DNA from: Clostridia bacterium
GTDB taxonomy: Bacteria; Bacillota; Clostridia; Oscillospirales; Acutalibacteraceae
NCBI GenBank assembly: GCA_017435865.1
Contig: JAFSEF010000053.1
Coordinates: 141,188-205,187, forward strand
Direction: 5' to 3'
Length of the DNA: 64,000 bases
This document shows positions 9,247-50,772 of the stretch, one piece after another; within the stretch, counting starts at the first letter, position 1, and the number at the start of each line of letters is the position of its first letter. Both the position numbers and the translations under genes were made by a program. A model generated the notes under the pieces. That model ran no database searches and was not told where the DNA came from. It saw only the letters and a program-made list of their open reading frames with translations.

Positions 9247-9253
9247 AAATTTC

Positions 9254-9464: not shown

Positions 9465-9493
9465 GAAACAAATCCTTACTTATTTTGCAATTA

Positions 9494-9526: not shown

Positions 9527-9547
9527 ATTTCCAAGGAGGCTGAAACA

Positions 9548-10018: not shown

Positions 10019-10044
10019 TTTTTATAAATTTTTAATATTTGGTG

Positions 10045-10073
10045 TTGCTTTTTAGTGATAATTTTTGTATAAT
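10045..10073 (+). promoter_or_regulatory. Sigma-70-type promoter with extended -10 (TTGCTT-17-TGTATAAT)
   Basis: TTGCTT at 10045-10050; TG at 10066-10067; TATAAT at 10068-10073. Confidence 0.55.
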
Positions 10074-10104
10074 ATTATAAATAATTTAAAGAGGTAGATT
10101 GCTG

Positions 10105-11532: not shown

Positions 11533-11545
11533 CGGAGGTGCAGCT

Positions 11546-12802: not shown

Positions 12803-12805
12803 GCC

Positions 12806-13159
12806 ATGACAAAAACGATGACTTGTGTTGCTTGTCCTCTCGGTTGTCAGTTGAGTGTTACGCTGGATGGTGACACTGTAGTTTCTGTTACGGGTAACAC
12901 CTGTAAACGCGGCGATGCTTATGCACGTACCGAAATCAGCAATCCTGTCCGTTCGCTGACGACCACCGTCCGCTGTGAAGGCGGCCTGCATCCTGTTGTG
13001 CCTGTAAAAACGACATTACCGATTCCGAAAGACCGCATGTTTGAATGTATGAAGCTTATCAACGAAACGGTCGTGCAGGCTCCCGTTGAAGTGGGACAGG
13101 TGCTGATTCATAATATTCTGGGGACAGATGCGCACGTTATTGCAACAAATAATAATTAA
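12806..13159 (+). CDS. DUF1667 domain protein
   Basis: N-terminal CVACPLGCQL...GNTCKRG pattern typical of DUF1667. 3-nt gap from the upstream gene. Confidence 0.75.
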   Translation: MTKTMTCVACPLGCQLSVTLDGDTVVSVTGNTCKRGDAYARTEISNPVRSLTTTVRCEGGLHPVVPVKTTLPIPKDRMFECMKLINETVVQAPVEVGQVLIHNILGTDAHVIATNNN

Positions 13160-13179
13160 ACCGATTGGAATTGTACTAT

Positions 13180-14655: not shown

Positions 14656-14731
14656 GGGGGTATAGCTCAGCTGGGAGAGCGCTTGACTGGCAGTCAAGAG
14701 GTCAGCGGTTCGATCCCGCTTATCTCCACCA
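14656..14731 (+). tRNA. tRNA-Ala (anticodon GGC)
   Basis: Hand-folded cloverleaf: acceptor GGGGGTA/TATCTCC with the G3:U70 alanine identity pair, anticodon loop CTGGCAG, T-loop GGTTCGATCC, and encoded CCA. Confidence 0.9.
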
Positions 14732-14845: not shown

Positions 14846-15460
14846 TTAACCGATTTTCTCAATTTTCTCACCTAATATAACAACTGCTTGATTATCACTT
14901 ATCGTAACCACTTCTTTACCATTGTTCATTAATAAACTGACAGTATCAGAAAATTCTTCGTTGTAATGTGGAATCAGTGCTGATGAAAGGAATGAAAGAC
15001 CTGCTGTATCATCTAGTTTACAGTCATTTTCATCCATGCAAAGAATATAGTTTATGTCAGAAGTTGCAATCACACTGCCTGCACTTATACCAACATAAAA
15101 CAAACCTTTATTTACAAATTCTTTAATTCTAGAGAAATAATTGTTTTCTTTTAGTTTTTTTAGCAAATAAAATGCATTACCACCACAAACATAAATACAA
15201 TCAAATTCAGAATCATTAAAGTATGTTGATACATCATCAGCATCAAACCAAACAATATTATCTTTGTTAATACCAACGGATAAAAGTTCGTTTAATGACT
15301 TCCTTACGAATACTTTTTCATCATCAGTTCTTGAAGCTGTCGGCACAAATAAAATCTTGAGTTCTTTTACTGGTTTTGGTACAAGGGCAATAAATTTTTC
15401 TGCTACCATTTTATTTTCAAGACCAGTAGAGGTCAAAAGGATTTTTTTCAAATAAAACAT
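14846..15460 (-). CDS. Peptidase S51 (dipeptidase E-like) family protein
   Basis: ILLTSTG N-terminus, YVCGGNAFYLL and GISAGS (nucleophile serine context). AT-rich. Start is uncertain: ATG at 15460, or TTG at 15451 nine nt after AGGAG. Confidence 0.7.
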   Translation of the reverse strand: MFYLKKILLTSTGLENKMVAEKFIALVPKPVKELKILFVPTASRTDDEKVFVRKSLNELLSVGINKDNIVWFDADDVSTYFNDSEFDCIYVCGGNAFYLLKKLKENNYFSRIKEFVNKGLFYVGISAGSVIATSDINYILCMDENDCKLDDTAGLSFLSSALIPHYNEEFSDTVSLLMNNGKEVVTISDNQAVVILGEKIEKIG

Positions 15461-15504
15461 CTCCTGTGAATACAAAACATTTAATCGAACATTTGTTCCT
15501 TCTC

Positions 15505-15604: not shown

Positions 15605-16162
15605 TTATGCCACCTTATCAATACCAACCATAAACTGCTCAAAGTCAATATTAAGCTCAACTTTCAGCTTATACCCTCTGCTAACCTCAACACGTTTAAT
15701 TAAGCAATTAACAATCATTTTTTTCTTTTCAAAACTCGCTTCATCATAAAGCTCCGCCCAAGAAATCAATTCATCAAAGCTGTCAGATAAGTTTTTGAGA
15801 ACACTTTCACCGTCTGCAACATCTTTTTCTGCATCAGTGCATAAGCCAAACAGTCGATTGCACTCTTTCTCTGATTCTGTAATCAATTCCGAAAGAGTAT
15901 CAGCCGAAAAAGAGCTTTCACCCTTAATTGCCTTAATAACTTCCGATTTCAGTATAGTGAGATTTTCAAACTCTTTACTGTAATCCGCTTTCAGCATATT
16001 CAGTCTTGCTTTTCTAACTTCAAGTTCATCGGCATAACGGAGCTTGATTATATCAGATTTTGATACACCTTTCATCTTCCTGAAAATTTCACGGACAATT
16101 TCATCAATCAAATCATCGAGAATGTGCAGAGTGTAACCCGACTGACCGTCACACTCCGTCTG
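15605..16162 (-). pseudogene. 3' fragment of a large serine recombinase gene (coiled-coil/C-terminal region only; catalytic domain absent)
   Basis: The reading frame opens directly after a TAG at 16163-16165 with ...ECDGQSGYTLHILDDLIDEIV, and there is no RBS. Coiled-coil region, and a C-terminus CLIKRVEVSRGYKLKVELNIDF resembling large serine recombinase tails. No resolvase domain is present anywhere nearby. Confidence 0.5.
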
Positions 16163-21433: not shown

Positions 21434-21535
21434 GTTGTTTCCTCCTTTTCTGTTGTCATTATTATAACATGAGATTGTTGCGATGAAAATAACCTCTTGA
21501 TTGAATGTTAAGACAGGATTCTCAACTTATAAATG

Positions 21536-21567
21536 CAGCCGTGTGCAGGAAAATCTGCACACGGCTG
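21536..21567 (-). terminator. 13-bp perfect hairpin downstream of the GH38 gene (probable terminator, weak U-tract)
   Basis: CAGCCGTGTGCAG gaaaat CTGCACACGGCTG, located 31 nt after the GH38 stop. Confidence 0.55.
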
Positions 21568-21597
21568 TGTCTGTTTCAGATGTACATTAAGATCCGA

Positions 21598-24500
21598 TTA
21601 TTTTTCAACAAGAACAGTAACAATTTCAAACGGCTTGAAAGGAAGTACAAAAGAGTTTCCGTTGACAGCAATTTCTTCTTTTTTGTCTTCAAGCATATTG
21701 GTAAGCCATACCTTCTTGAACGGAGTATGCAGCGTAACGGTTGCATTGACAGCATTGCGTTCACATTCATACATGCGAAGCACATATGCATTTTCAATGA
21801 GCTCGGCAGGCTTGACAGCTTCGCAGATAACATCGGAAGCATCAATGGTAAGGAATGCATCCGTGTTCTTTGCAGCACCTGCAACAGCAACCGTGGGGAT
21901 GTTCAGTTCATAAGCAGGCTTTACAACGTTGTCGCTGCTGAAATCACTGTTGTGCGGCAGCAGGGAATAAGTCATTTCATGAACACCCCGGTCACCTGTG
22001 ACGTCGGGATGTGTACCGCCGCGATGCAGGGACAGACGAAGATTTGTATCCGTTACGGTGATACCGTATTTGCAATCATTGAGCAATGCAACACCAAAAC
22101 GGCTTTCGGAAACGTCAGTCCACTTATAGTTGCAGACTTCGAATTTTGCATATTCAAGAGAAGTGTTTCTTGTTGTGGGACGATCAACGTGACCGAACTG
22201 AATTTCATTCTTTGCGTTGATGGTGCGAACATCAAGATCAAAACCGACTTTCAACAGGGAGTGCGGAGAGTTCCAATCAACAAGTGTCTGGAAGTCAACT
22301 CTCGGATTGTTTGCATAGACGATCATATCCTGTGTAAGGGTAGACTTGCCGAACTTGAAAACAGAACGCAAACGCATTTCAACAGCACCGTCGGAAACAA
22401 CTTCACGGGAAACAAAACCGTCAACAATCTGCAGTCTTTCAACAACATCGGTTTCAAGATCCCAGTTGTCCCAGCTGTGAGGAACGTCTTCACCGAACAG
22501 CAGACAGTTCAGCGGAGCACCGTCTTTTTTACGCAGTTCTCTGCCGGAAGCTTTGTCAATAAACGAAGCAATGTAACCTTTGTCGTCAAATGTGATGACT
22601 GCATAAGGAGTTTCAAGTTTTGTTCCCTCATAGGCAAAAACAGAAGTATTTGCAGGAGCAGCATCTGTCATTCTGATGGTTTTTGCTGCAAATCCGTCAA
22701 TGGTGCCGGCTGCTACAGCAAGGCATTCTCTGCCGCATACATCTGTATATTTCTGGCTGGGAACGTCAGCAGCAAATCTGGTTTCATTTTCAATAACGGC
22801 AACATCGTTTCTTGCAAAAGAAAGGGTGTTGTAAAGTGTAACAGAAACAGCAGCACTGTCCGTAATCATGTCAGCATAAGCAAGAGCCTGTGTGTTCAGA
22901 TCGGAGATCAGCTCATCCATTTCGGTGTTATAAAGAGTATAAACAGGAGTAATGCAGGTGCCAGGAAGAATATCATGGAACTGATTCTTAAGAAGAATCT
23001 TTGTCCATTTGTCAGCGTTTTCACAGCAGGGCTGATCACTGATGACGTTAAAATATTCCATGTTTCTGACTGCAAATTCACCCTTGCGGTTCTTTCTCTT
23101 GACATCGTGCATCTGGGTGAGGGTGCCTCTGTGCAGTTCAAGGTAAAGTTCTCCGTCATAGGTGGGAAGGTATTCTTTTTCAGCTTCAAGTTCTTTCATG
23201 AAGTTGCTGATGGTCATGTCCTCAATTTCAGGCATACCTTCCATGGAAGAAGATCTTCTTGCAGATTCGATCATGCCGTAGGTCGGTCCGCCGCCACCGT
23301 CACCATAGCCGTAAGCCACAAGACGCATGTCGTTTGCTTCTTTGAGCGTGATCTGATTAACAGCTTCTGTGATCGTGCTCACATCGGGGAAGCAGTGCGT
23401 TCTGTTGAAATGAGTGAGCACTTCGCTGCCGTCGATACCCTTCCATGTAAAGCTCTCGAACGGGAAGTGGTTCATTTCGTTCCAGCCGATTTTGGTGGTG
23501 TAGAAATAAGGTACTTCACAACCACGCATGATCTGCGGGATGTTGCCGTTGTAACCGAATGTATCAGGCAGCCAGAAGGAGTCAGCTGTGTAGCCGAAGT
23601 GCTCACGAGTGAACAACTGGCCTTTGAGGAACTGACGAACCATAAACTCACCGCTGGTCACGTTGCAGTCGCATTCAACATAAACGCCGCCGTTGGGTTC
23701 ATATCTGCCTTCGGCAACATATTTTTTCATATCTTCAAAAATATCGGGATAGTAATCCTTCATCCATTCGCAATGCAGTGCGGAAGACTGAATGAACTTA
23801 TATTCCGGATACTGACGCATCAGGGACATAGCGTTGCAGTAAGTACGTGCACATTTGCGGATGGTTTCAGATACGGGCCAGAGCCATGCAGTGTCCATAT
23901 GGCTGTGACCGATGATGCCGACACGGCCGAACGTACGGCTGTTGCCGCCTTTGTTAAAGAATTCGCGGGTGTATTTCAAAGCTTCGCGGATACCTGCCTG
24001 AATTTCTTCATCAGTATAATGAAGCGGATAGAAGACAACACAGTCTGCTACTTTGTCAAGTACTCGCATAGCTCTTGTTCTTGCAAAATTGTTCTTTGGA
24101 AGTGCTACTCTTGCGGCAAGCAGTTCACGAACGTCAAAAACAAAGTCCTTGATTTCTTCGTTCATGTAGCAAAGCTTAACACCGTTGTAGGTGTGCAGGT
24201 AATCTTTTTCGGGAATATCAGGATAACCGTAATTGTCATAAGGAGAACAATCAACACAGAAATGACCTGCATAGCATTCAAACGAAAGCTGATAGCTGTC
24301 ACCCGGCTGTGCATTGTCGCAAACAAGCAAAGCACTGTGATTGCCGCCGACAAAATCATTCTTTGAATTATAAAGTCCCATCGGTTTGCCGTCGATGAAG
24401 AACAACTGTTCAACACCACCGCAATTGGAAACAGCGAACAGCTTTTTGCCGGCTGCTTCAGCAGGCACTACCGCTTTACCTGTGTACCAACGGTTCTGCC

Positions 24501-38113: not shown

Positions 38114-39382
38114 TCAGATACCGTACTGGTTGTAGTTGAAAATAGCCTGCAAGGTTACATTGAGAGCTTTTTCCATGGTTTCGGGTACAAGAATGTCGGC
38201 AGTGTCGAGTCTCGTGTGATAATATCTTGCAGGAGCAGGATCCATAGCAACAAAGCTTGCGGCTTTGATTCCTGCCTGTGATGCGGCTGCTGCATCTGTA
38301 GAGCCGAGCGGGATTGCACCGACGGGAATATCCATACCGAACTCAGCACCTGCCTGCTTCAGAAGCGTGCAGACACGTTTGTCATTTTTGACAGTGCCTG
38401 TCATATCTCTTTCGTAAATCATCATGTATTCTTCATCACGGATGGTGTCAAGGCTGATGAAAATAGTTTCCACACCATCGTTTTTCAGTTCGGGATGTGC
38501 TTCAAAATATGCCTTGGAACCGCGAAGACCTGCTTCTTCACCACCGGCAAGCATGCAGACCACTTCCGTATTTTCGAAACGGATGTCATTGTCGCTGAGG
38601 TACTTCATGACAGCAGCACTGATATAGCAACCTGTCAGGTCATCATTTGCACCATCTACATAACGCTTATTGTTTGTGAATTTATAAAGTGCACCGTATG
38701 CAGGCAAGAAAGCTGCCTGACCGAGTGCCATTTTTTTTGCGGTGCAGATGTTTTTGTTTTTCAATACCATTGCGGTGGTGGCAGCTGTATAAGCAAGGCC
38801 GGCAATAGCATATCCTGCAACCATAATGACACCGTGTGAGCCGAGTTTATAGGTGTATGTCCATTCGGGAGCAGAATCGGTATGACCGGAAATAATGACT
38901 CTGCGTCTTGTTTCACCTTTTGCTTTTCTGACGGCTATAACATTGCCGGATTCCTTTTCTTTGAAGAAAGGATCAAGCATTTTTTTGTATGTTACAAATT
39001 CGCCTGCAATGCCGGCCAATGCACCGCCAATGAGTGCTATTGATCCCAAAGCGGTTTTTGATTTCTTGAATGCACCGATTGTGTTGAGTGCAGATGCTCC
39101 GATGAGTGCTGTACCTGCAATCGGGACAAATGACATGAATGCATCGGGATTCACTTTGAAAGTTTCTCTTGTAACGCTGTCGCAAAAACCTTCCAGGTCC
39201 TGCATCATGGCTTCCTGTGCCTTTTTTTCACTGTCCTCACCGCAAGGACGGGGGCCGAATGCAGAGCAGATGTTCTTAATACCGTTAACTGCAAAATCAG
39301 TACAGTCTTTTACTGTTGTTTTTGCATCTTTGAATTTTTCGGAAAAAATCATTTGTTTCACTTCCTCAAATTTTTGTTTCAT
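38114..39382 (-). CDS. M28-family metallopeptidase with membrane-spanning segments
   Basis: Zinc-ligand blocks ISGHTDSAPEW, GANDDLTGC and GGEEAGLRGSKAY. Internal hydrophobic helices. Confidence 0.7.
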   Translation of the reverse strand: MKQKFEEVKQMIFSEKFKDAKTTVKDCTDFAVNGIKNICSAFGPRPCGEDSEKKAQEAMMQDLEGFCDSVTRETFKVNPDAFMSFVPIAGTALIGASALNTIGAFKKSKTALGSIALIGGALAGIAGEFVTYKKMLDPFFKEKESGNVIAVRKAKGETRRRVIISGHTDSAPEWTYTYKLGSHGVIMVAGYAIAGLAYTAATTAMVLKNKNICTAKKMALGQAAFLPAYGALYKFTNNKRYVDGANDDLTGCYISAAVMKYLSDNDIRFENTEVVCMLAGGEEAGLRGSKAYFEAHPELKNDGVETIFISLDTIRDEEYMMIYERDMTGTVKNDKRVCTLLKQAGAEFGMDIPVGAIPLGSTDAAAASQAGIKAASFVAMDPAPARYYHTRLDTADILVPETMEKALNVTLQAIFNYNQYGI

Positions 39383-39529
39383 CCATTATACAGTAAAAGT
39401 TAAAAATAATCAAGTCTTACGTATTCTTAAAAAATCTGTATATTGCTGTTTCTTTACTTGTAAAAATTATTTACTTGTGCTACAATAATACGGTACGTCC
39501 AATCTTTAAAATAAAAAGGGGATTATTAC

Positions 39530-41089
39530 ATGAGTAAACAATATGATGTTATTGTCATCGGTGCAGGCAACGGCGGTCTTGCTGCTGCTGCCACCTGTGC
39601 AAGAGCAGGACTTTCTACACTTTTGCTTGAACGCCATAACATTCCCGGCGGTTCGGCATCTTCTTTTGTCCGCGGACGATTTGAATTTGAACCGTCTCTG
39701 CATGAGTTGGCAGGTGTCGGTTCTCCCGATAAATCCGGACAGATTGAAGATATGTTCGGTCGTTTTGAAGCGAATGTTGAATTTTGTCAGCATGATTCCA
39801 CATTCCGTCTTGTTGTCCCTGCTAAAGAAGGTGACACGGATACATTCGTCAACGAAAACGGTGTAGAAGTTGTTGTCGATGCCCGCATGCCCGTCGGCTT
39901 TGAAGCTTTTGCACGCAAGCTTGATGAACTTGTACCCGGTTCGTATGAAAGCTGTAAGGAAGCTTTCAGATTGTCTGATCGTATGTTCAAGGCTTTTGAT
40001 TGTCTTGAGGATCTTTCCAAATTGCCGGGTTCTCTGAAAGACGTTCCCAACCTTCTTCGTATGATTTCCCATACCATGAAGGATTCTCTTGATGCACTGG
40101 GAATGCCCAAGAAGGCGCAGGATATCTTCAATACTTATTGGTGCTATCTCGGTTCTCCCGCATCACAGCTTGACTTCCTGTATTATCTTGCAATGGTGCA
40201 CAGCTATATTAAAGACGGCACAGGGATTCCGAAGCTGAGAAGCCATGAAATGAGCCTTGGTATTGACGAAGTTATCCGCAGGCATGGTGGTGACATCTGG
40301 TACAATTCCGAAGTCACCAAGGTCATCGTCAAGGACGGTAAGCCCGCAGGTGTTGTCATCAACGGCAATAAGGAAGTATATGCAAAATACTTCGTCTGCA
40401 ACTCCTATCCTTATGCAGTGTTCAAAGATCTGTTCGACGCAAAGGATATCCCGGAAAAGCAGCTTAAAATGCTCAATGCCAGAAAAACCGCTTGCTCACT
40501 CACAACCGTTTATCTCGGTATGAACAAGACCAAAGAAGAACTCGGAATCAAGGACTATTCTGTCTTTATTGCTCCCGATTCGGATTCTGATAAACAGTAT
40601 GAAGCAGCTCAGAATTTCGGCAGCGGTTTCTGTATCATCAACTGCCTGAATGAAATTATTCCCGATTGCACACCCGAAGGAACCAGCCAGTTGTTCCTTA
40701 CAACCATGACCTTCGGTGATGTAATGAAAGATGTAAAACCCGAAGATTACAAGAAATTCAAGACCGAAGTTGCAAGAGACATGATTGAAACCTGTGAAAA
40801 GGCTCTCAATATTTCCATCATGCCTTATATTGAAGAAATTGAAATCGCACTTCCGCCTACATTTGCAAGATACCTCAATACTCCGTTCGGAACGCCTTAC
40901 GGATATATGCTTGAAAAATGGGACAGCATGATTCCGAGAACCGTACAGTATCTGCAGGATCAGCCGTTTGATAATTTCTTCTTCTGCGGTGCTTCGCAGG
41001 AACGCGGCGACGGTTACGGCTGTGCATACTACACCGGTGAAAAAGCAGGCGGACTTGTTGTGAATGCAATGAAAAAGGAGGGCAAATAA
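39530..41089 (+). CDS. CrtI/phytoene-desaturase-family FAD-dependent oxidoreductase
   Basis: YDVIVIGAGNGGLAAAATCARAGLSTLLLERHNIPGG dinucleotide-binding N-terminus and a family-typical C-terminal GGLVV-type region. Confidence 0.75.
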   Translation: MSKQYDVIVIGAGNGGLAAAATCARAGLSTLLLERHNIPGGSASSFVRGRFEFEPSLHELAGVGSPDKSGQIEDMFGRFEANVEFCQHDSTFRLVVPAKEGDTDTFVNENGVEVVVDARMPVGFEAFARKLDELVPGSYESCKEAFRLSDRMFKAFDCLEDLSKLPGSLKDVPNLLRMISHTMKDSLDALGMPKKAQDIFNTYWCYLGSPASQLDFLYYLAMVHSYIKDGTGIPKLRSHEMSLGIDEVIRRHGGDIWYNSEVTKVIVKDGKPAGVVINGNKEVYAKYFVCNSYPYAVFKDLFDAKDIPEKQLKMLNARKTACSLTTVYLGMNKTKEELGIKDYSVFIAPDSDSDKQYEAAQNFGSGFCIINCLNEIIPDCTPEGTSQLFLTTMTFGDVMKDVKPEDYKKFKTEVARDMIETCEKALNISIMPYIEEIEIALPPTFARYLNTPFGTPYGYMLEKWDSMIPRTVQYLQDQPFDNFFFCGASQERGDGYGCAYYTGEKAGGLVVNAMKKEGK

Positions 41090-41090
41090 G

Positions 41091-42296
41091 ATGGCTGACC
41101 TGAAAACTTTAAAAGCAAGAGAATTTCTTTCCATGCTTCCCGACAGACAGGAAAGATTCAATTCTGCAAAAGCAGAGTTCCCGACATTTTCTGACAATGC
41201 TGCGGTTCTTGCCCGTGCATTGCATCCCAAAAGACAGTATCTGAAAGTTGCCGAAGTCATTGAACGCGGAGAAGATTGTAAGAGCTTTGTTCTTGTTCCC
41301 GATGCAGACAAAGGCACCACTGCACTTGCATATTTCGGTGCAGGTAAATACCTGACCGTGTTTGAAACCATTGAAAATATGCCTGTTACCAGAGCATATT
41401 CCATCTCATCATCTCCCAAGGATGCCCTCAACGGAAAATATGTTCTTACCATCAAGCTTGTGGAAGGCGGACTTGTATCACGTTATATTCTTGATACATG
41501 GACAGTCGGCACTTCTGTTGAAGTTTCCGCTCCTTCCGGTAATTTTGAATATCAGCCGCTTCGTGATGCCAAAAAGGTCATTTGCCTTGCTGGCGGCAGC
41601 GGTATTACTCCGTTCCTGTCGATGGCAAATGCTGTTGCTGACGGTGATGAAGACTTTGAAATGACCCTTCTTTACGGCAGCCGTAATGCAGATGTGATTC
41701 TGTTCCGTGAAGAACTGGATGCTGTTGCTGCTGCTTGTGATAAAGTAAAGATTGTTCATGTGCTCAGTGATAAAGGTGCATCCAAGAAACTCAAGGGTTC
41801 CGAAAGCGGTTTCATCACTGCAGAACTGATCAAAAAGTATGCACCTGCTGACGAAGAGTATTCCGTATTCCTTTGCGGTCCTCAGCAGATGTACGAGTTT
41901 GTAGATAAAGAACTCGAAAAACTCAATCTTCCCAAGAAATTCATCCGTCACGAAATGTTCGGTGAGTTCCATAATCCTTCCACACAGGCAGATTATCCTG
42001 CTGGTGTTCCCGAAACAGTTAAAATCACTGTTACCATCCAGGATGAAACCACCACTGTTGAAGGTTCTTCCAATGACTCTGTCATGCAGATTCTCGAAAA
42101 GAACGGCATTTCTGTGCCTGCCCGTTGCCGCAGCGGTGAATGCGGATTCTGTCATTCCCATCTGCTTTCGGGTGAGATTTATGTGCCTGCACATCTCGAT
42201 TACCGCCGTCTTGCTGACTATAAGTTCGGTTGTATTCATCCGTGCTGTTCGTTCCCGCTTACTGATCTTGTTATCAATGTTCCTGTTGCAAAATAA
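41091..42296 (+). CDS. Ferredoxin-NADP reductase-type flavoprotein with C-terminal plant-type [2Fe-2S] ferredoxin domain
   Basis: RAYSISS (FAD RxYS), LAGGSGITPFLS (NAD(P)H site), and CRSGECGFCHS...C cluster motif. Starts 1 nt after the upstream stop. Confidence 0.8.
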   Translation: MADLKTLKAREFLSMLPDRQERFNSAKAEFPTFSDNAAVLARALHPKRQYLKVAEVIERGEDCKSFVLVPDADKGTTALAYFGAGKYLTVFETIENMPVTRAYSISSSPKDALNGKYVLTIKLVEGGLVSRYILDTWTVGTSVEVSAPSGNFEYQPLRDAKKVICLAGGSGITPFLSMANAVADGDEDFEMTLLYGSRNADVILFREELDAVAAACDKVKIVHVLSDKGASKKLKGSESGFITAELIKKYAPADEEYSVFLCGPQQMYEFVDKELEKLNLPKKFIRHEMFGEFHNPSTQADYPAGVPETVKITVTIQDETTTVEGSSNDSVMQILEKNGISVPARCRSGECGFCHSHLLSGEIYVPAHLDYRRLADYKFGCIHPCCSFPLTDLVINVPVAK

Positions 42297-42310
42297 AGGA
42301 GAGAAGATAA

Positions 42311-43990
42311 ATGGATAAACTGTTTACCATCAAATTTAAAAACGGCAATGAGACTATAACAACACGCGCTACCGAAAACGATTTTTTCCGTCTTGATATC
42401 GTCGATACAGGAAGTCGTTACACTGTTACCCTTGTTCCCAAGCAGACTTTTGAGATGGTTGACTTCTTTGTGGAATTTCCTTACTGCTTTGCTGAAAATG
42501 ATAAATTCTTCGGCAACGGTTATCAGTCCTGGACAAAATCCAAAGAGTGGACTGCCGATGAAATTATGCCCGGTTGTATCAAGCTGAGCAACATCAGCGA
42601 GTTCACAAAAGGAATTGCCAGAAAGACAAGCGATGAATGGATTGTCAAATATTCCGAAATTCCCGGTGAATTCCACAGCCATTGCTATACCTATGTCCGC
42701 AACGGTGAAAATGTAAAACTCTGGGGTTCTTTGAATGAGAAGACCGGTTATACCATTTTCAAGGTTAAGATGAATGAAAATCGTTTTTACTTCTGTAAAG
42801 ATCTGCTTGGTAAGGTCATTACGGAACCGTGGCAGATTTTCGATATCGTTTATTTTGAAGGCGGTTATGAAGAAGTCTTCGATAACTATTTCGCATTGTG
42901 GAAAATGCCTGAAACCAGACACGGAACCATGAGTGGTTACACATCCTGGTACAATTATTTCCAGAAAATCGACGAAAATATCATTCTTCGTGACCTTGAC
43001 GGTCTTGATCCTTATAAAGATCAGGTTTCCATCTTCCAGATCGATGACGGTTATGAAACTTTCATCGGTGACTGGCTGGATCCCAATCCTGCAAAGTTCC
43101 CCAACGGTATGAAGTACATTGCCGATAAGATTCATGACAAGGGCTACAAAGCAGGTATCTGGCTTGCACCTTTCAACTGTCAGAGAGTATCCCGTATGGC
43201 AAAGGAACATCCCGATTGGCTCATCCTTGATGACAACGGCAAACCCATGGTAGGTTGTATTGCATGGGGCGGTGCTTATACATTCGATATTTACAACGAA
43301 AATGTCCGTGCTTATCTGAAGGAAGTTTTCGATGTTGTACTCAATGACTGGGGTTATGACATGGTTAAGCTCGACTTCCTGTATAGTCAGTGTATCAAAC
43401 CCAGACACGGAAAGTGCCGCGGTGAAATCATGTGCGATGCCATGGCTTTCCTGCGTGAATGCGTCGGTGATAAGCTGTTCCTCGGCTGTGGTGTACCCAT
43501 CGGTCCTGCACTCGGTGTTGTGGATGCCTGCCGCATCAGCTGTGACGTTGACCTTACTTACAAGGGACAGTTCTACAGCCGCATTCAGGTCAGCAACGAA
43601 ATGCTCAGTGCAAGAAGTGCCATCAATAACTCCATCTTCCGTCGTCATCTCAACGGCAGAGCATGGATGAATGACCCCGATGTTTTCTTCCTGCGTAAAG
43701 ACAATCTTACCTTTACCGATGAACAGAAATATCTGTTGGGCAAAGTCAACAATCTTTGCGGAACGGTTCTGTTTGTATCTGACAATGCAGGTGATTATGA
43801 TGCATCTGCAAGCCGTCTGCTCAAGAAATTCTTTGAAAAGACCGATGAAAAAATCATTTCTGCCGAATACATCAACAAAGATGTGATCACCGTTGAAACA
43901 GAAAAAGACGGCAATCGCAGCAGATTCACTTTCAATCTTGCAAAGGGTAAGTTCATTGAAGGTGAAAACTGGAAAGAATATTTTTGCTGA
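42311..43990 (+). CDS. Alpha-galactosidase-like glycoside hydrolase, GH36 family
   Basis: FQIDDGYE, GIWLAPF, VKLDFLY and WMNDPDVF motifs. Confidence 0.78.
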   Translation: MDKLFTIKFKNGNETITTRATENDFFRLDIVDTGSRYTVTLVPKQTFEMVDFFVEFPYCFAENDKFFGNGYQSWTKSKEWTADEIMPGCIKLSNISEFTKGIARKTSDEWIVKYSEIPGEFHSHCYTYVRNGENVKLWGSLNEKTGYTIFKVKMNENRFYFCKDLLGKVITEPWQIFDIVYFEGGYEEVFDNYFALWKMPETRHGTMSGYTSWYNYFQKIDENIILRDLDGLDPYKDQVSIFQIDDGYETFIGDWLDPNPAKFPNGMKYIADKIHDKGYKAGIWLAPFNCQRVSRMAKEHPDWLILDDNGKPMVGCIAWGGAYTFDIYNENVRAYLKEVFDVVLNDWGYDMVKLDFLYSQCIKPRHGKCRGEIMCDAMAFLRECVGDKLFLGCGVPIGPALGVVDACRISCDVDLTYKGQFYSRIQVSNEMLSARSAINNSIFRRHLNGRAWMNDPDVFFLRKDNLTFTDEQKYLLGKVNNLCGTVLFVSDNAGDYDASASRLLKKFFEKTDEKIISAEYINKDVITVETEKDGNRSRFTFNLAKGKFIEGENWKEYFC

Positions 43991-44100
43991 ATGTGATGCA
44001 ATTTTTGTCAATATTATTGAATATTGATTCATTTGTACTGTTTTATAAAAAGCACTGTCCGATGGATGGTGCTTTTTTCTGTTGCAGTGAGAAATGCCTC

Positions 44101-44129
44101 TTGAAAACAGAACAAAAGTTTGGTATAAT
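44101..44129 (+). promoter_or_regulatory. Promoter of the TerB/ATPase/helicase operon (TTGAAA-17-TGgTATAAT)
   Basis: TTGAAA at 44101-44106; TG at 44121-44122; TATAAT at 44124-44129. Preceded by a hairpin plus T-run at about 44047-44078. Confidence 0.6.
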
Positions 44130-44167
44130 CAAACAAAAGTTCGATTATTTGTTTTGCGGAGGTTTTT

Positions 44168-45631
44168 ATGTCTGATACGCAAGCGATCATAAATGCAGTC
44201 AATGCAGGGTGGCAGCAGGCAAGTAAAAAGAATCCTGCTGTAAAAATATACCGTGATGAACCGATCATCATGCGTGCATCTCAGATGCCGTCTTATACAC
44301 CTGCTATGTACGCAAAAATGCGTAGAATTGCAGTGGAATGTTACGCAAAAACGGAGAGTGAAGTATTTTACAGGCAAGCGAAATTCATGGAGAATTTTGA
44401 AGATGATTGCTGCTACAAGGGCGAATTCAAGCGTTATTATCCAACTTTTCGCAGCATGAACGATGCACAACTACGTGGATATTTTACATGGCGTTCTAAA
44501 GTCAGAAAAGGTTTGATTGAAAAAACATCACTATCATATGTTTATGTTTATCTGTATGAATTGCTTAACGGTGTCGGACAAGGGACACCGCAGGAACTGT
44601 TTTTGCATTTGCTGCATTTCTGGAATGAATACGAAAAACTCGATGATCGGATTGCCGTCTACAAAAACAGATGGTTGAAAGATTTTTGTATTTATTATAA
44701 TCTGCCTGTTTGCTTTTATGCTAAAGTGTCTGAAGATACACAAGAAAATAAAAACGCCGCATTGATTCATTGTGCAGAAGAATCAGATCAGGCAGTTTTT
44801 GAAGCTCTGGAATCAATTTCTTCTTACAAAATCCGCAATTCGGCTTTCTTTAAAACACACACTGAAGAATGTATAGCAGTAACAGCATCTGTTGTCAGGG
44901 CTCTTGCAGTGTATGACAAAGCAAAGAATCCTCAACAGGATTCATGTTGTTTCGGAGCTTTTTGTTCGGGGAAACGAATGCTGTTTTCCGGAGCTGTGTT
45001 TTTTGACAGGTTGAAGCATGAAGAATATGAATACAGAATCAATGAATCGGAAGTGTATACCTGCAACAACGGACAATGGAGATATGCACAGTTTATGTGC
45101 TACACGGGTAGGAATCAACCTGCCGGAGCTGTCTTGCGAACCATTGACAGCAAACTGCGTGAAAAAACGGGATATAAGAGCAAAATCAAGGCAGGCGAAC
45201 TGTCTGTTGACAGGGAAAAGATAATTGAACAATGTATTGATGATTATTTTATCAGCCGGAGATTCAGAGCAGCAGAATCCATTGAAATTGATCTGTCCTT
45301 GTTGTCTGCAATACGCAGCGATGCCCTTGAAACACAAGGGCGACTGCTGACAGAAGAAGAACAGGAACCTGTCCGTGTTGTTGAAATCAAGCAACCGGAA
45401 AACTGTACGCAGCTTTCAGATCTGCAGTTCGCATTCCTTTTGCGACTGATTAAAAATGAGTCCTATGATGATCTGTTGCAGCAAAGCGGACAATTTGTGA
45501 ATCTGTTGGCAGATGAAATCAACGAGGTGCTCTATGAGGAATTCGGCGACACAGTTATAGATTTTAACGGAAATTTACCATTTATTATAGAAGATTATGC
45601 AGATGATTTGAAAGGATATATCGGTTTATGA
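44168..45631 (+). CDS. TerB-N/TerB-C domain protein (Shango-type component)
   Basis: YPTFRSMNDAQLRGYFTWRSKVRKG...SYVYVYLYELLNG matches the TerB-N pattern as I remember it. C-terminal region is acidic and helical. GGAGG RBS. Confidence 0.7.
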   Translation: MSDTQAIINAVNAGWQQASKKNPAVKIYRDEPIIMRASQMPSYTPAMYAKMRRIAVECYAKTESEVFYRQAKFMENFEDDCCYKGEFKRYYPTFRSMNDAQLRGYFTWRSKVRKGLIEKTSLSYVYVYLYELLNGVGQGTPQELFLHLLHFWNEYEKLDDRIAVYKNRWLKDFCIYYNLPVCFYAKVSEDTQENKNAALIHCAEESDQAVFEALESISSYKIRNSAFFKTHTEECIAVTASVVRALAVYDKAKNPQQDSCCFGAFCSGKRMLFSGAVFFDRLKHEEYEYRINESEVYTCNNGQWRYAQFMCYTGRNQPAGAVLRTIDSKLREKTGYKSKIKAGELSVDREKIIEQCIDDYFISRRFRAAESIEIDLSLLSAIRSDALETQGRLLTEEEQEPVRVVEIKQPENCTQLSDLQFAFLLRLIKNESYDDLLQQSGQFVNLLADEINEVLYEEFGDTVIDFNGNLPFIIEDYADDLKGYIGL

Positions 45632-46944
45632 AAATACCTAAAAGAATTGCAACCGTACTGATGAATGCGCTCAAAGGCGGCGTTGTGCCGCGTATCGGCT
45701 TGCCGTATGTTACAGTCGGCAGAAAAGCTGAAATTGAAGCGATTTTACATGATGTTGATATTATTGCCGAAGGGGGAGCTGCCTTTCGGTTTATTGTCGG
45801 TAAGTACGGTAGCGGTAAGAGTTTTCTTCTGCAGACTATACGTAATTACTGCATGGATCGCAATTTTGTTGTTGCTGATGCAGATTTGTCACCTGAACGC
45901 AGGTTGCAAGGTACAAACGGACAGGGCTTGGCAACCTACAGAGAACTGATTCGCAATTTATCTACCAAAACACGTCCCGAGGGCGGTGCTCTGCCGTTGA
46001 TTCTTGATCGTTGGATCAGTGCTGTGCAGTCCGAGGTTTTTCTTTCCGGCGCAGAAGGTGAATGTGAACTTGAAAGAAAGATTGAAAAGAAGATCTATGA
46101 AACAGTAACTTCTTTAACCGAACTTGTGCATGGATTCGACTATGCAAAGTTGCTGATGCTTTATTATTCAGCATCAAAAAATGATGACGAGGAAAAGAAG
46201 GCGGCAGTGCTGAAATGGTTTCGTGGAGAATACAACAACAAAACGGAAGCAAAGTCTGCACTCGGTGTCAATATCTGCATAACTGATGATTCCTGGTATG
46301 ATTATCTGAAATTGTTGTCCGCTTTCCTACAGCGTGCAGGATACAGCGGTATGATTGTTATGCTTGATGAACTTGTCAATATTTATAAAATTCCGAACAG
46401 CATCACAAGACAATACAATTATGAAAAAATACTGACTATGTATAACGATGTTCTGCAAGGAAAAGCACAGTATCTCGGTTTCTTAATGTGTGCAACACCG
46501 CAATGCATGGAAGACCGTCATCGCGGTGTGTTCAGCTATGAAGCACTTCGGTCCCGTTTGCAGGCAGGCAGATTCTCTGATGAAAATACGGTGGATATGC
46601 TCGCTCCGATTATTCGTCTGCATCCGCTGACATATGAAGAATTGCTTGTGCTGACCGAAAAACTGCGTGACATTCACGCTTCACTATATGATTATCAGCC
46701 CATTCTCACACAGGAAGATCTTGTATCATTTATTCAGATTGAATGCAGCCGTGTCGGAGCTGATACAAAAATAACCCCGCGTGAAATCACACGTGACTTT
46801 ATAGAACTGCTTAATATTATTATGCAAAATCCGCAATGCAGCGTAAAATCCTTGTTGAAAGCGGACTCTTTCTGTTTTGCCAAAACGCAGACAGAAGAAA
46901 AATCGGCTGTCAGCGAAGAAGAATTTGCTGAATTTGAGGTTTGA
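45628..46944 (+). CDS. P-loop ATPase, DUF2791/BrxD-like (Shango-type component)
   Basis: Walker A GKYGSGKSF and Walker B IVMLDELV. ATGA start/stop overlap with the upstream gene. Confidence 0.7.
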   Translation: MKIPKRIATVLMNALKGGVVPRIGLPYVTVGRKAEIEAILHDVDIIAEGGAAFRFIVGKYGSGKSFLLQTIRNYCMDRNFVVADADLSPERRLQGTNGQGLATYRELIRNLSTKTRPEGGALPLILDRWISAVQSEVFLSGAEGECELERKIEKKIYETVTSLTELVHGFDYAKLLMLYYSASKNDDEEKKAAVLKWFRGEYNNKTEAKSALGVNICITDDSWYDYLKLLSAFLQRAGYSGMIVMLDELVNIYKIPNSITRQYNYEKILTMYNDVLQGKAQYLGFLMCATPQCMEDRHRGVFSYEALRSRLQAGRFSDENTVDMLAPIIRLHPLTYEELLVLTEKLRDIHASLYDYQPILTQEDLVSFIQIECSRVGADTKITPREITRDFIELLNIIMQNPQCSVKSLLKADSFCFAKTQTEEKSAVSEEEFAEFEV

Positions 46945-46946
46945 AA

Positions 46947-49190
46947 ATGAGTGTCTTTGATCGTTACGCACCTTTTGTGCAGGATTTTATTTACGAAAAC
47001 GGATGGCAATCATTACGCGGAATTCAGGTTGCTGCAGGAGAGGCAGTATTTGAAACAGATGATAATGTGCTGTTGTGTGCATCCACTGCATCAGGCAAAA
47101 CAGAAGCAGCTTTCTTCCCGATTCTGACACAGTTTTATGAAGATATGCCGAAATCTGTCGGTGCTTTGTATATCGGACCTTTGAAAGCTCTTATCAATGA
47201 CCAGTTTTCTCGTCTTGATGATTTGTGTTCACGTGCTGATATTCCGGTGTGGCATTGGCATGGAGATGTTGCTCAATCTCACAAAAACAAGCTCTTAAAA
47301 AATCCGTCGGGCATTCTGCAGATTACACCGGAATCTTTGGAAGCATTGCTGATGAGAAAACACGCTTACATCGGTCGTCTGTTTTGTGATCTTCGCTTTA
47401 TCGTGATCGATGAAGTGCATTCTTTGTTGCGAGGTGATCGCGGCGGACAGACTCTGTGTCTTATAGAACGTCTTTCAAAACTTGCGGGTGTAAATCCCAG
47501 AAGAATCGGTTTGTCGGCAACCCTCGGTGATCCGATAGCCGTCGGTGAATATCTTGCTGCGGGCACAGGCAGAAAAACGTTCATTCCACAACTTGAACAC
47601 CAACCTGTGAAATGGCGGCTTGCAATGGAACATTTTTTTGTTCAGGGGGAACAGGCACAGACAGAACATGAGATTGAAGATGTGCAGCAGTTGCTTGCAC
47701 AACCCTCAGACTCTGCTCCCGAACAGGCTGATCCCGGTTTTGGTTATATATTTGAACATACACGGGATCGCAAATGCCTTGTCTTTGTCAATTCCCGCGA
47801 AGAATGTGAAGCTGTCACCACTACTTTGCGTCAGTATTGCGAAGTCAATAATGAAAGAGACAGATTCATGATTCATCACGGCAATCTGTCTGCATCTTAC
47901 CGTGAAACGGCAGAAACTGCAATGAAAGACGATGAAGTACAGCTGACAACAATAACAACCGCCACGCTTGAACTTGGAATTGATATCGGCAAGCTCGAAC
48001 GTGTTTTTCAGCTTGATGCACCTTATATGGTGTCTTCATTCCTGCAACGTCTCGGTCGTTCGGGGCGACGTGATCTGCCGCCTGAAATGTGGTTTGTTAT
48101 TCGTGAGGATATGGCAGAAGCAAGAGCAATGCTGCCCGAAACAGTACCGTGGAAACTTATACAGGGAATTGCACTCGTACAGTCCTATCTTGATGAACGG
48201 TGGGTTGAGCCGCCACGATTAGATCGCTTGCCGTTCAGTTTATTATATCATCAGACAATGGCTACATTGACTTCCTGTGGGGAGCTGACTCCTGCTGCAC
48301 TTGCTGCAAGGGTATTATCCTTACGGGTTTTTCAACGTATTACAAAGGATGATTATAAAGTTCTTTTACGGCATCTGCTTGAAACCGGACAGATTCAACG
48401 CACGGAAGAAGGCGGTTTGATGGTCGGGCTTGCAGGTGAAAGGCAAGTGAATTCATTTAAGTTTTATGCGGTCTTTCAGGAGAATGAGGAATATACCGTA
48501 CGAAGTGCATCTCATGAAATCGGTACTCTTTGTATGCCGCCGCCACCCGGTGAGAAAATTGCAATTGCAGGTCATGTCTGGCTTGTGGAAGAAGTGGATC
48601 ACAAACGTCACATTGTCTATTGTGAACAGATCCGCGGTAAAGTACCTGCATACTTCGGAGCCTGCCCGGGGGATATCAATACGCACGTTCTTGAAAAGAT
48701 GCGATCCGTATTGTCGGAAGATCGTTCGTATCCTTATGTCATGAAAAATGCCGCAGCGAGATTGTATCAGGCACGTCAGTCTGCACGTTATGCAGGAATT
48801 ACAAAAGAACCCCTGATCAATCTCGGTGGCGATATGTGGTGTTTGTTTCCGTGGTTAGGTACTTATGCATTTCTCGCATTGGAACGATTTATAAAAATCA
48901 AATGTGCAGATCGTCTCGGTATAAAAGGGTTTGATTCATGTCGACCTTACTTTATCCAGTTTAAAATGAAAGCAACCAAAGAACAGTTTTTCAATGTCCT
49001 GTCTGAAGAATCAGAAAAAGAGATTGAACCTTTGTCTTTGGTTTATGAAAAAGAAGTACCGCTTTTTGAAAAATATGACTCTTTTTTGCCCATGGAACTT
49101 GTCCGCAAAGGTTTTGCATATGGTGTGCTCGACATTGAAACAATGATAAAACGTATCAAAGAATGGAAAACAAAGACGGATTCTGAATAA
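46947..49190 (+). CDS. Lhr-like DEAD/DEAH-box superfamily 2 helicase (Shango-type component)
   Basis: Motif I ASTASGKTEAAF, motif II VIDEVH, motif III GLSATLG, motif VI QRLGRSGRR. GAGGT 6 nt before ATG 46947; TTG at 46941 overlaps the upstream stop. Confidence 0.8.
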   Translation: MSVFDRYAPFVQDFIYENGWQSLRGIQVAAGEAVFETDDNVLLCASTASGKTEAAFFPILTQFYEDMPKSVGALYIGPLKALINDQFSRLDDLCSRADIPVWHWHGDVAQSHKNKLLKNPSGILQITPESLEALLMRKHAYIGRLFCDLRFIVIDEVHSLLRGDRGGQTLCLIERLSKLAGVNPRRIGLSATLGDPIAVGEYLAAGTGRKTFIPQLEHQPVKWRLAMEHFFVQGEQAQTEHEIEDVQQLLAQPSDSAPEQADPGFGYIFEHTRDRKCLVFVNSREECEAVTTTLRQYCEVNNERDRFMIHHGNLSASYRETAETAMKDDEVQLTTITTATLELGIDIGKLERVFQLDAPYMVSSFLQRLGRSGRRDLPPEMWFVIREDMAEARAMLPETVPWKLIQGIALVQSYLDERWVEPPRLDRLPFSLLYHQTMATLTSCGELTPAALAARVLSLRVFQRITKDDYKVLLRHLLETGQIQRTEEGGLMVGLAGERQVNSFKFYAVFQENEEYTVRSASHEIGTLCMPPPPGEKIAIAGHVWLVEEVDHKRHIVYCEQIRGKVPAYFGACPGDINTHVLEKMRSVLSEDRSYPYVMKNAAARLYQARQSARYAGITKEPLINLGGDMWCLFPWLGTYAFLALERFIKIKCADRLGIKGFDSCRPYFIQFKMKATKEQFFNVLSEESEKEIEPLSLVYEKEVPLFEKYDSFLPMELVRKGFAYGVLDIETMIKRIKEWKTKTDSE

Positions 49191-49314
49191 CGTATAGTAT
49201 TATACAGAAGTAGGAGTAATTATTCTTGAAAACTTGGTAATTTGATAAAATAGAGATTTACAATTCATTAATATTATGTTATACTATACAACATATATAA
49301 TATTGGAGGTTCCT

Positions 49315-50772
49315 ATGAAAACTTTATTTTTGTTTTCCAAAGAAACCAAGGGTGAAGGGTATGTGCCCAATAATGAGATTTTTGCTCTTGCATCAGGACT
49401 TACGGGACAGAATCTGACTTACAGCTATACATCCAGTTGGTTGAAGTACTTCTGTGTAAACCTGTTGCATATGGATCCTGCAAAAGTCGGTTATATTTTT
49501 TCTCTCAGCCACGTGTGGGATGCGATCAACGATCCCATTGTAGGCGGTTTTGTTGACAGAAGAAATTACAAACCCTTTATGAAATTGCGACCGTTTTTGC
49601 TTTATACACCGCCGATTCTCGGCATTCTTGTAACTTTGATGTTTGTCAATGTAAACTTCAGTGAAAACGGTAAGGTTGCATACATTCTGGTTTTGTATTT
49701 CATGTTTGACTTGTTTTATTCTTTCCAGGATGTCAGCTTGTGGGGGATGATAGCCTTGTCGTCGCCGCATTCACAGGAGCGATCACGTGTCGCACAGTGG
49801 GTTTCCATCGGTGCAGGTGCAGGCGGAGCCATTGTCGGTACGTTCCAACAGATCCGTTCCATTCTGAGTGGTCTTGGTGTTTCCGATGTTACCATTTTCC
49901 TGATTTGCGGATTTGTGTTCGGTCTCGGCGGTGAGTTGATTTCCATGAACTCCTATCGCATGAAAGAACGAATCTGTTCCGAAGTGCCGAAAGAAGAGAG
50001 TCTGTTGCAGTCACTCACCATTCTTCGTCACAATCCGACATTGTTGCTCATTTCTCTTGCACGTTTTTCACAAGGTCTCAGTCCTAAAGTGCAGAACGCT
50101 TATTTCTTTGAGAATTGCGTTACACTGCAGGTTGGCAATACCACAATCAACGGCCAGACCGCAGAATTTCTTTTCGGACTTTTCGGCGGTATTCCCGGTA
50201 CGGGAGCTATGTTCTTTGCAAATAAGATTGCAGACAAAATCGGTGGTATGAAGCGTATACTGCTTTCTTCCCAGATTGCTGCGATCGTATTGCGTGTGGT
50301 TACATATTTTATCGGCTATAATACATTGCCGAAGTTTATCATCATGACCGTACTGATCTCACTTGTCAATCTTCCCGGTAGTATGATGGATATTGCTCAT
50401 CGTTCATTGACAAGTGACTCCATAGATGAAGTTGAATACAAAACGGGCATCCGTTGTGAAGGTGTGTCATTCTCCATGCAGAACTTCACTACCAAAATGC
50501 AGAGTGGTGTTGCTTCGCTGATTGAAGGCAGATTGCTGAAGTATCTCGGCTACGACAGTTACGCAAAAGAGGCAGGCAAGCCGCAGAATGAAACATTTAT
50601 GAAGTGGCAGTGGCCGATGTTTATTCTCGGTCCCGTTGTCGGTGCTGTTTTGTATCTTGTTATTATCAGTTTTGTCAAGGACTCTAAGGAGAAGAGAGAA
50701 GAAATCGAAAGAGTTCTGAAAGAACGTCGTAAGCAGATTGAAGAAGAATCTGCTGTCGTTAATGCAAAATGA
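49315..50772 (+). CDS. MFS transporter, glycoside-pentoside-hexuronide (GPH):cation symporter family
   Basis: DAINDPIVGGFVDRR signature, about 12 hydrophobic segments, GGAGG 5 nt before ATG 49315. Confidence 0.8.
   Translation: MKTLFLFSKETKGEGYVPNNEIFALASGLTGQNLTYSYTSSWLKYFCVNLLHMDPAKVGYIFSLSHVWDAINDPIVGGFVDRRNYKPFMKLRPFLLYTPPILGILVTLMFVNVNFSENGKVAYILVLYFMFDLFYSFQDVSLWGMIALSSPHSQERSRVAQWVSIGAGAGGAIVGTFQQIRSILSGLGVSDVTIFLICGFVFGLGGELISMNSYRMKERICSEVPKEESLLQSLTILRHNPTLLLISLARFSQGLSPKVQNAYFFENCVTLQVGNTTINGQTAEFLFGLFGGIPGTGAMFFANKIADKIGGMKRILLSSQIAAIVLRVVTYFIGYNTLPKFIIMTVLISLVNLPGSMMDIAHRSLTSDSIDEVEYKTGIRCEGVSFSMQNFTTKMQSGVASLIEGRLLKYLGYDSYAKEAGKPQNETFMKWQWPMFILGPVVGAVLYLVIISFVKDSKEKREEIERVLKERRKQIEEESAVVNAK

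Follow-up and report, generated by a model that had tools for sequence, protein, structure and literature searches.

What switches on a Shango anti-phage operon that stands alone among the sugar-metabolism genes of a gut bacterium? The operon in question, sngABC (44168-49190), lies in a 64,000-nucleotide stretch of DNA, called the window throughout, from the chromosome of an uncultured ruminant-gut member of the Acutalibacteraceae (Oscillospirales). Shango was found by experiment to act against phages in Escherichia coli and Pseudomonas aeruginosa (10.1101/2022.05.11.491447, 10.1101/2022.11.11.516204). The literature search turned up no paper on what triggers it or on the effector step, and none with a solved structure, and the role of TerB-type proteins was still called unclear in a 2025 preprint. 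The window operon is, close to certainly, a complete and intact Shango system, and the -10 box of its promoter is bracketed by two predicted LexA operators, which suggests that in many gut Firmicutes DNA damage turns Shango on. On the basis of sequence, conservation and enrichment, LexA control of this copy is considered probable. An earlier reading of the same DNA (the original prediction) described the promoter but missed both operators inside it.

The identity of the operon follows from near full-length matches to the PADLOC models, the expected Pfam domains, intact catalytic motifs and the gene order A-B-C, which is repeated in 37 other complete loci. The SngA, SngB and SngC models are the top matches of their respective genes over nearly the whole length, with E-values of 2.8e-67 for SngA (aa 42-484 against model positions 65-526 of 528), 5.9e-186 for SngB (aa 2-437) and 8.6e-270 for SngC (aa 3-736). 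In Pfam, SngA has TerB_N (2.2e-27) and TerB_C (2.1e-14), SngB is covered in full by BrxC_BrxD/DUF2791 (PF10923, 3.1e-166), and SngC has DEAD and Helicase_C. SngB carries the Walker A motif GKYGSGKSF (aa 58-66, K64) and the Walker B motif IVMLDELV (aa 243-250, D247-E248), and SngC carries the superfamily 2 (SF2) helicase motifs ASTASGKT (motif I, aa 45-52), DEVH (aa 155-158), SAT (aa 190-192) and QRLGRSGRR (aa 367-375). No NCBIfam model exceeded its cutoff for any of the three proteins. The family assignment, the domains and the motifs, including a TerB_N-like block in the first gene, had all been named in the original prediction. Its judgement that the trio belongs to a described family and is not new also holds, since the PADLOC matches make this an ordinary instance of Shango, and its view that the system is mechanistically open agrees with the literature search, in which no paper on the mechanism of Shango turned up. 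The system is widespread, with 906 SngA cluster representatives (50% identity clusters) at E <= 1e-30; published reports also place it in Staphylococcus aureus and Bacillus cereus.

The two predicted LexA operators (Table 1) lie 21 bp apart from centre to centre, on either side of the -10 box. Operator 2 reads AAACAAAAGTTC on the plus strand; taken with its flanks, the operator is CGAACTTTTGTTTG, and a related locus from a second species (L006; related loci are cited by such numbers) has a perfect GAACAAAAGTTC at the same position. Both sites lie across core promoter elements, where bound LexA would keep RNA polymerase out. The clostridial LexA operator takes the forms GAACnnnnGTTT and GAACnnnnGTTC; in Clostridioides difficile the GTTT form is found at lexA, recA and ruvC, and the GTTC form at uvrB (PMC4234289). 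Both window sites match the clostridial GAACN4GTTT exactly, a consensus that comes from C. difficile and from which the operator of the host itself may differ; no signature of recA, lexA, uvrA, uvrB or dinB was found in the 2.3 Mb of loci searched. Of the 6 distinct GAACN4GTTY sites in the window, two are those that bracket the -10 box of sngA.

The promoter and its boxes are nearly invariant in the window, L006 and L168, loci in which SngA is only 60% (L006) and 45% (L168) identical to the window protein, and operator 1 is also kept in L179 and in the L100 group. Across 79 related loci, the strict motif occurs 2.69 times per kb in the 160 nt upstream of sngA and 0.035 times per kb elsewhere in the same loci, an enrichment of about 77-fold. 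It is found in 18 of 47 SngA clusters (70% identity), where less than one would be expected by chance, and it overlaps the -35 box, the spacer or the start site in all cases. The half-sites are invariant over 19 sites, and the N4 spacer varies (AAAA, ATGT, AAAT, ACCT, ATCT, AAGT, GTTT). Positions that the search left unconstrained fit the Gram-positive consensus CGAACAnnTGTTyG, with C before the box in 12 of the 19 sites, A after GAAC in 17, T before GTT in 13 and G after the box in 17. Box-bearing loci span low and high GC content (locus GC 0.32-0.67), and the box is missing in four loci of known non-Firmicute origin (Victivallis L175 and L176, Synergistaceae L087, Planctomycetaceae L174). 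The LexA motifs of other phyla (CTGT-N8-ACAG, GTTC-N7-GTTC, TGTTC-N4-GAACA and the cyanobacterial type) were not enriched upstream of sngA; a lone CTGT-N8-ACAG match (L126) proved to be the stem of a terminator hairpin.

A link to DNA repair genes is seen in two of about 90 loci, in which uvrA adjoins Shango. In a Ruminococcaceae contig (L173, Ga0318466_10007046, 4376-13233), the promoter TTGACAACAGAACAAATGTTTGATAAAAT, which contains a predicted LexA box, drives radC-uvrA-sngA-sngB-sngC, with a gap of 15 nt between uvrA and sngA; this contig is an indirect sign that such operators also precede SOS genes. The other is a Clostridium estertheticum plasmid (L171, 11933-14479), where sngC is immediately followed by the gene of a UvrA-like ABC ATPase that has a UvrA_DNA-bind domain. 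No paper tying Shango to LexA was found in the literature search, and blastn of sngC against all complete E. coli genomes gave no match.

The comparison of related genomes shows how long the operon has been at its site. In L006, the same GH36-sngABC-MFS order lies in 21 kb of collinear sequence with 78.7% nucleotide identity to the window. Synonymous sites are saturated between the two (proportion of synonymous differences, pS, 0.59-0.79), save in one recently exchanged 3-kb patch, and the ratio of nonsynonymous to synonymous rates (dN/dS) is not computable for that reason. The shared slot and the saturation therefore indicate that the trio is old at this site and not a recent insertion. It is nevertheless accessory, with a clean pair of occupied and empty sites in related species: L179 has an ArgZ-like gene, 5.5 kb with sngABC and a Peptidase_S11 gene, whereas L166 has the ArgZ-like gene, 75 nt and the Peptidase_S11 gene, with flanks 66-80% identical to those of L179. 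The original prediction had the operon inserted between sugar operons; the comparison supports the accessory nature of the trio but not its insertion in this genome. In the next relatives (L007, L008, L009 and L050), the GH36 gene is followed by the GH38 gene that in the window is found 18 kb upstream, and both the trio and the MFS block are absent; the GH36-to-MFS interval is not invariant core synteny. In another species (L167, L168), the trio is found between a MOSC gene and a Peptidase_S11/two-component pair, adjoining the MFS orthologue. No SngA relative was found in the IMG/VR viral contigs, and tblastn of SngA against a plasmid collection gave two records only, one of which, from C. estertheticum, has the complete trio beside a relaxase and IS110.

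The three proteins evolve at two speeds. Between the window and L006, dN is 0.333 for SngA and 0.137 for both SngB and SngC, the latter two diverging at about the pace of the faster flanking genes. Over the 37 complete loci, SngA has a median identity of 36% to its window counterpart, SngB one of 68% and SngC one of 73%. The identities of SngA and SngC co-vary (Spearman 0.78), which argues for co-divergence at unequal rates rather than module swapping. The best 120 SngC matches (90% identity clusters) are all at least 74% identical to the window protein; matches across phyla are 74-78% identical, those from Ruminococcus among them, and those from Victivallis (including V. vadensis, Lentisphaerota) are at 75-76%. 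Such conservation of SngC is unusually high for a defence protein.

Not every locus holds the whole trio. Four loci (L087, 7866-11183; L098, 2755-6725; L090; L109) have sngA and sngB with no sngC within several kb, and in L098 the gene after sngB is a biotin-synthase-like radical SAM enzyme. In seven others (L107, L127, L130, L133, L137, L141 and L160), 0.5-2 kb are inserted between sngB and sngC, or the SngC match is partial. All these loci may be decayed or variant forms of Shango.

Domain and structure comparisons say more of SngB and SngC than of SngA. The conservation of SngA peaks in a motif at aa 87-137, around the TerB_N block at aa 91-135. The TerB core domain (PF05099) is absent from SngA at E <= 0.01, only TerB_N and TerB_C being matched, so inferences from the TerB of tellurite resistance, such as membrane association, have little basis here; nor were partners of the Ter family (terC, terD, terZ and others) found among the neighbouring genes. 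In the AlphaFold2 model of SngA, which is confident (predicted local distance difference test, pLDDT, 87.5), TerB_N is helical and spans aa 46-253. Next come a beta unit of four strands with helices (aa 263-393) and a disordered linker, and the C-terminus (aa 418-484), made of three helices and a hairpin, looks like a winged helix. The weak Foldseek matches of SngA are a LysR-type winged helix-turn-helix (wHTH) at the C-terminus and one 43-aa phage 'TerB-C' fragment. Among the sequence relatives of SngA and of SngB, none has a solved structure. BrxD, an AAA+ ATPase of the ORC/Cdc6 type, may be the loader of BrxHI, with which it forms a tightly linked dyad (PMC12839542). For SngC, the nearest solved structures by sequence are Lhr (5v9x, 7lhl) and MrfA (6znp), over the helicase core only. 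Its C-terminal model (pLDDT 61) has a winged helix, a five-stranded small beta-barrel and an alpha/beta domain, with weak fold matches to a MarR-type wHTH and to the TrmU/MnmA barrel; low as its confidence is, its topology agrees with the published description of BrxHI (PMC12839542). No nuclease, protease, NADase, pore or membrane, or toxin domain was detected in SngA, SngB or SngC.

From these data a model can be proposed, which as a whole is held to be somewhat more probable than otherwise: Shango in this host would be repressed by LexA and inducible by the SOS response, and would restrict phages directly. In unstressed cells, LexA dimers on the two operators would block the strong promoter. 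DNA damage, prophage induction or phage replication intermediates would activate RecA, upon which LexA would cleave itself and the promoter would fire. SngA, SngB and SngC would then be produced together through translational coupling, as the gene junctions suggest. SngB, as a BrxD-family AAA+ ATPase of the ORC/Cdc6 type, may load SngC onto DNA or activate it there, as was proposed for BrxD and BrxHI (PMC12839542), and SngC would be a 3'-to-5' SF2 translocase of the Lhr/BrxHI type with extra DNA-binding modules. The two-speed evolution points to SngA as the phage-facing subunit, with the slow BrxD/BrxHI-like motor behind it; diverging 2-3 times faster than its partners, SngA may be a specificity or regulatory subunit that reads a phage cue or is contested by phage inhibitors. 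With no recognisable effector domain in the three proteins, restriction is probably direct rather than suicidal: the proteins would use ATP to disrupt intermediates of phage replication or recombination, and host nucleases may help.

Several observations weigh against this model. About 60% of the SngA lineages have no box, including Victivallis, a Planctomycetaceae metagenome-assembled genome (MAG), Anoxybacterium and the Clostridium plasmid, so SOS control would be lineage-restricted and no defining trait of Shango. Across 14 species, 15 strains of E. coli included, a published transcriptome survey found the expression of defence systems overall negatively correlated with recA transcripts. 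The subunit roles are drawn from homology, and for SngA, whose model has no match with E < 0.2 in the PDB or BFVD (Foldseek), the function is a guess. The fold matches of the SngC C-terminus are hints only, because the model was built from a shallow alignment, in which all homologues are at least 71% identical, and is of low confidence. The operator assignment itself draws on sequence, conservation and enrichment. In a different account of the promoter, the GAACN4GTTT sites are not LexA operators and arise by chance in an AT-rich promoter or serve another regulator, for example through autoregulation by the winged helices of SngA or SngC, with Shango constitutive or otherwise controlled. The motif is indeed absent from many Shango loci, the AAAA spacer and the whole 29-mer are common to several lineages and could be a shared promoter cassette, and wHTH-like folds, weakly supported, are present in both proteins. 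Against this account stand the 77-fold enrichment over the background of the same loci and the invariant half-sites around a spacer that varies across lineages. The flanking C and G, which the search did not select, fit the Gram-positive consensus, the same type of box precedes the uvrA-containing operon of L173, and boxes occur in low- and high-GC loci but are missing in the four loci of known non-Firmicute origin. This account is thus regarded as quite unlikely.

The repair genes near some copies raise another possibility, namely that the trio is primarily an SOS-regulated module for DNA-damage repair or tolerance (stalled forks, R-loops, lesions) and that phage restriction is a by-product. 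It would explain the predicted LexA operators, the co-transcription of uvrA and radC in L173, the UvrA-like ATPase after sngC on the C. estertheticum plasmid, and the kinship of SngC with the repair helicases Lhr and MrfA, its nearest solved relatives. The very strong conservation of SngC across phyla, the persistence of the trio at one chromosomal site in two species past synonymous saturation, and a window without defence-island or mobile-element context fit it too. Yet the Shango family restricts phage experimentally in two hosts, the trio shows a clean presence/absence polymorphism between related species and is missing in the closest relatives with GH36 synteny, the pace of SngA evolution resembles that of an arms race, and one plasmid copy adjoins a relaxase and IS110. 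UvrA is adjacent in only two of about 90 loci, and SngC falls far under the NCBIfam repair-helicase cutoffs, so that a primary repair role is judged unlikely. A broader variant of SOS control, in which Shango across a large Firmicute block would be a member of the LexA/SOS regulon, with its uvrA fusion in one lineage, is put forward tentatively and appears doubtful: the trigger would be the activated RecA/LexA signal, with no dedicated sensing pathway, and a damage-induced helicase machine would act on aberrant phage or host intermediates, phage restriction being one of its outputs. As to origin, SngB matches BrxD (4.3e-50) and SngC matches BrxHI (2e-122) over nearly the full length, and the linked BrxD-BrxHI dyad of type-2 bacteriophage exclusion (BREX/Pgl) could suggest a remnant or satellite of that system. 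This is very improbable, because the Sng models far outscore the Brx models, the NCBIfam BREX_BrxD model stays under its cutoff on SngB (169 against 350 bits), and a TerB_N/TerB_C gene heads the operon in all 37 complete relatives; moreover, PglZ, PglX, BrxC/PglY and PglW were not found among 41 window open reading frames (ORFs; PADLOC, Pfam) or in the gene calls of locus L004.

The architecture of the operon, which LexA would control in the favoured model, is that of a single unit with its own start and without a clear end (Table 1). The three genes are co-directional and contiguous in the order A-B-C, and their junctions overlap or abut: sngA and sngB share an ATGA at 45628-45631, and the sngB/sngC junction reads GAGG-TT-TGA-AA-ATG, with the stop at 46942-46944 and the ATG at 46947. 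The ORF lister gave sngC from a TTG at 46941, and its 747 aa are counted from the ATG. In a consensus scan, the sngA promoter scored 11/12 with the TG and was the top site in 43800-49500. The sequence around the upstream terminator (44036-44090) folds at -23.7 kcal/mol (z = -6.2), and none of 200 shuffles folds as well. The promoter, the terminator closing the GH36 gene and both gene junctions had been correctly read in the original prediction, which went too far in calling the operon self-contained. No terminator-like structure was found 3' of sngC, where 49186-49275 folds no better than shuffles (z = +0.55), and read-through into the MFS gene is therefore possible. The promoter-like site before the MFS gene has TTTACA-17-TATACT with TG (consensus scan).

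Table 1. Coordinates of the sngABC operon and its expression signals in the window.
Feature	Coordinates	Strand	Description
Intrinsic terminator	44047-44082	+	Hairpin and T-run; closes the upstream GH36-like gene
Sigma-70-type promoter	44101-44129	+	-35 TTGAAA 44101-44106, 17-nt spacer, extended -10 TG-n-TATAAT 44121-44129
LexA (SOS/Cheo) operator 1, predicted	44110-44121	+	GAACAAAAGTTT; in the -35/-10 spacer, abuts the TG of the extended -10
LexA operator 2, predicted	44131-44142	-	GAACTTTTGTTT; 2 nt past the -10 box, over the expected transcription start
Ribosome-binding site	44158-44162	+	GGAGG, 5 nt ahead of the sngA ATG; read from the sequence
sngA	44168-45631	+	487 aa; TerB_N and TerB_C
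sngB	45628-46944	+	438 aa; BrxD-like ATPase
sngC	46947-49190	+	747 aa from ATG; BrxHI/Lhr-like SF2 helicase
Intergenic region	49191-49314	+	Terminator absent; promoter-like site for the MFS gene at 49257-49285

Two further regulatory sequences were observed. A perfect palindromic LexA-type box, CGAACATTTGTTCC, lies at 15487-15498 in the window, upstream of a minus-strand Peptidase_S51 gene (14846-15475) and 12 nt from its listed TTG start, near a tRNA-Ala gene (14656-14731) and an orphan 168-aa ORF (15605-16111) that has no Pfam match; to take this ORF as a recombinase fragment was a guess that found no Pfam support. Upstream of sngA in Anoxybacterium hadale (L172, CP042469, 7680-8000), there are two full tandem copies and the start of a third of a unit of about 115 nt, each ending in TGATATAATAAATGC and containing the inverted repeat CAAACCGGAGCAACGGTTTGC. 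This array has no LexA box and may be a different regulatory design.

The surroundings of the operon are those of a core chromosome. The window contains RNase J, GdpP, DnaB, TilS, FtsH and many glycoside hydrolases, and the GC content of the region is unremarkable. Copies identical or nearly identical to the window are found on ruminant-gut metagenome contigs, and the nearest named genomes are Acutalibacteraceae MAGs. The genes within about 10 kb on either side of the trio are metabolic. The PADLOC and Pfam scans of the 41 larger window ORFs found neither an integrase or transposase nor any further defence or mobility gene, which bears out the original prediction on this point. PADLOC matches outside the trio (IetA, TRIP13, HTH_VI, a CARF model containing a beta-galactosidase, and others) look generic; the scan gives no ORF for each match, and the FtsH, HTH and GH2 genes of the window are their likely sources. 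Rfam had no match in 43500-49800. The upstream gene (42311-43990) has a partial Pfam Melibiase match (aa 249-356, 2e-14) and, in the public gene calls, a weak Glyco_hydro_31_2nd match, so its 'GH36' label is a loose one. The downstream gene is an MFS_2 sugar transporter that starts at 49315 in the public gene calls. A direct repeat of 16/20 identical positions flanking the cassette (44089-44108 and 49214-49233) is absent in L006 and was treated as chance. Two long antisense ORFs, 42236-44032 (minus strand, 598 aa) and 21505-24366 (plus strand, 953 aa), lie in full on the strand opposite to the GH36-like and GH38 genes; both lack a Pfam match and are therefore most likely shadow ORFs and not genes. 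A 3-kb patch at 39242-42239, which holds the genes of an FAD oxidoreductase and an FNR-like Fe-S flavoprotein, has 89-98% nucleotide identity to L006 (dS 0.31-0.36), in the midst of 18 kb that are 70-85% identical with dS saturated, and looks like the result of recent recombination or transfer between the two species.

Three unreported leads, namely the predicted LexA operators, the fusion with uvrA in L173 and the unequal rates of SngA and its partners, make the trigger of Shango directly testable. The operator pair predicts that Shango is switched on by DNA damage or by prophage-inducing conditions. Similar repression, if present in the copies that were tested behind native promoters, could contribute to the weak phenotypes reported; the boxes were examined outside the E. 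coli and P. aeruginosa systems. The lack of a toxin or nuclease domain, together with the links to type-2 BREX and Lhr, suggests a shared loader-plus-helicase module, the understanding of which would inform Shango and BREX alike.

The window operon shares all three proteins and their order with the Shango of E. coli and P. aeruginosa PA14 (Millman et al., 2022; Johnson et al., 2023). Phage protection was shown for those homologues; for the window copy it is predicted. It differs from them in its host, an uncultured Oscillospirales gut anaerobe, in its location, outside any defence island or hotspot and alone among sugar-metabolism genes, and in its promoter, which has two predicted operators of the Gram-positive LexA type. 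In type-2 BREX/Pgl, the BrxD-BrxHI dyad consists of full-length homologues of SngB and SngC, and its published layout (PMC12839542), an ORC/Cdc6-type AAA+ protein and an SF2 helicase with wHTH, beta-barrel and Lhr-CTD-like domains, matches the two Sng proteins, which are likewise adjacent and probably act as loader and helicase. In contrast to type-2 BREX, Shango has no methyltransferase, PglZ, BrxC or PglW, hence no epigenetic self/non-self marking, and its TerB_N/TerB_C protein stands where BREX has its core. With Lhr or the ligase-associated DEXH helicase and with MrfA (YprA), SngC has the SF2 DExH core in common (TIGR04121 aligns to aa 11-482), and the likeness of Shango to repair helicases extends to the DNA-damage response through the predicted LexA boxes and the uvrA adjacency. 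SngC is nevertheless distinct from the Lhr type in score (197 bits against a cutoff of 850 for TIGR04121, and 173 against 849 for PRK13767), has no Pfam match to the DEAD_assoc (PF08494) or DUF1998 domains in comparison with Lhr and MrfA, and differs from repair helicases in its obligate pairing with SngA and SngB and in its accessory distribution.

Defence systems under the control of DNA damage include cyclic-oligonucleotide-based anti-phage signalling systems (CBASS) regulated by CapH/CapP and systems with WYL-type regulators such as BrxR. A Moraxellaceae WYL activator is another example (PMC12392091). The window operon would share with these systems the logic of an immune operon that is kept off until a signal of damage arrives. 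Unlike the CBASS and WYL examples, where a dedicated regulator is involved, this operon has no such regulator gene beside it, and its control would come from the global LexA of the host through the operators in its promoter.

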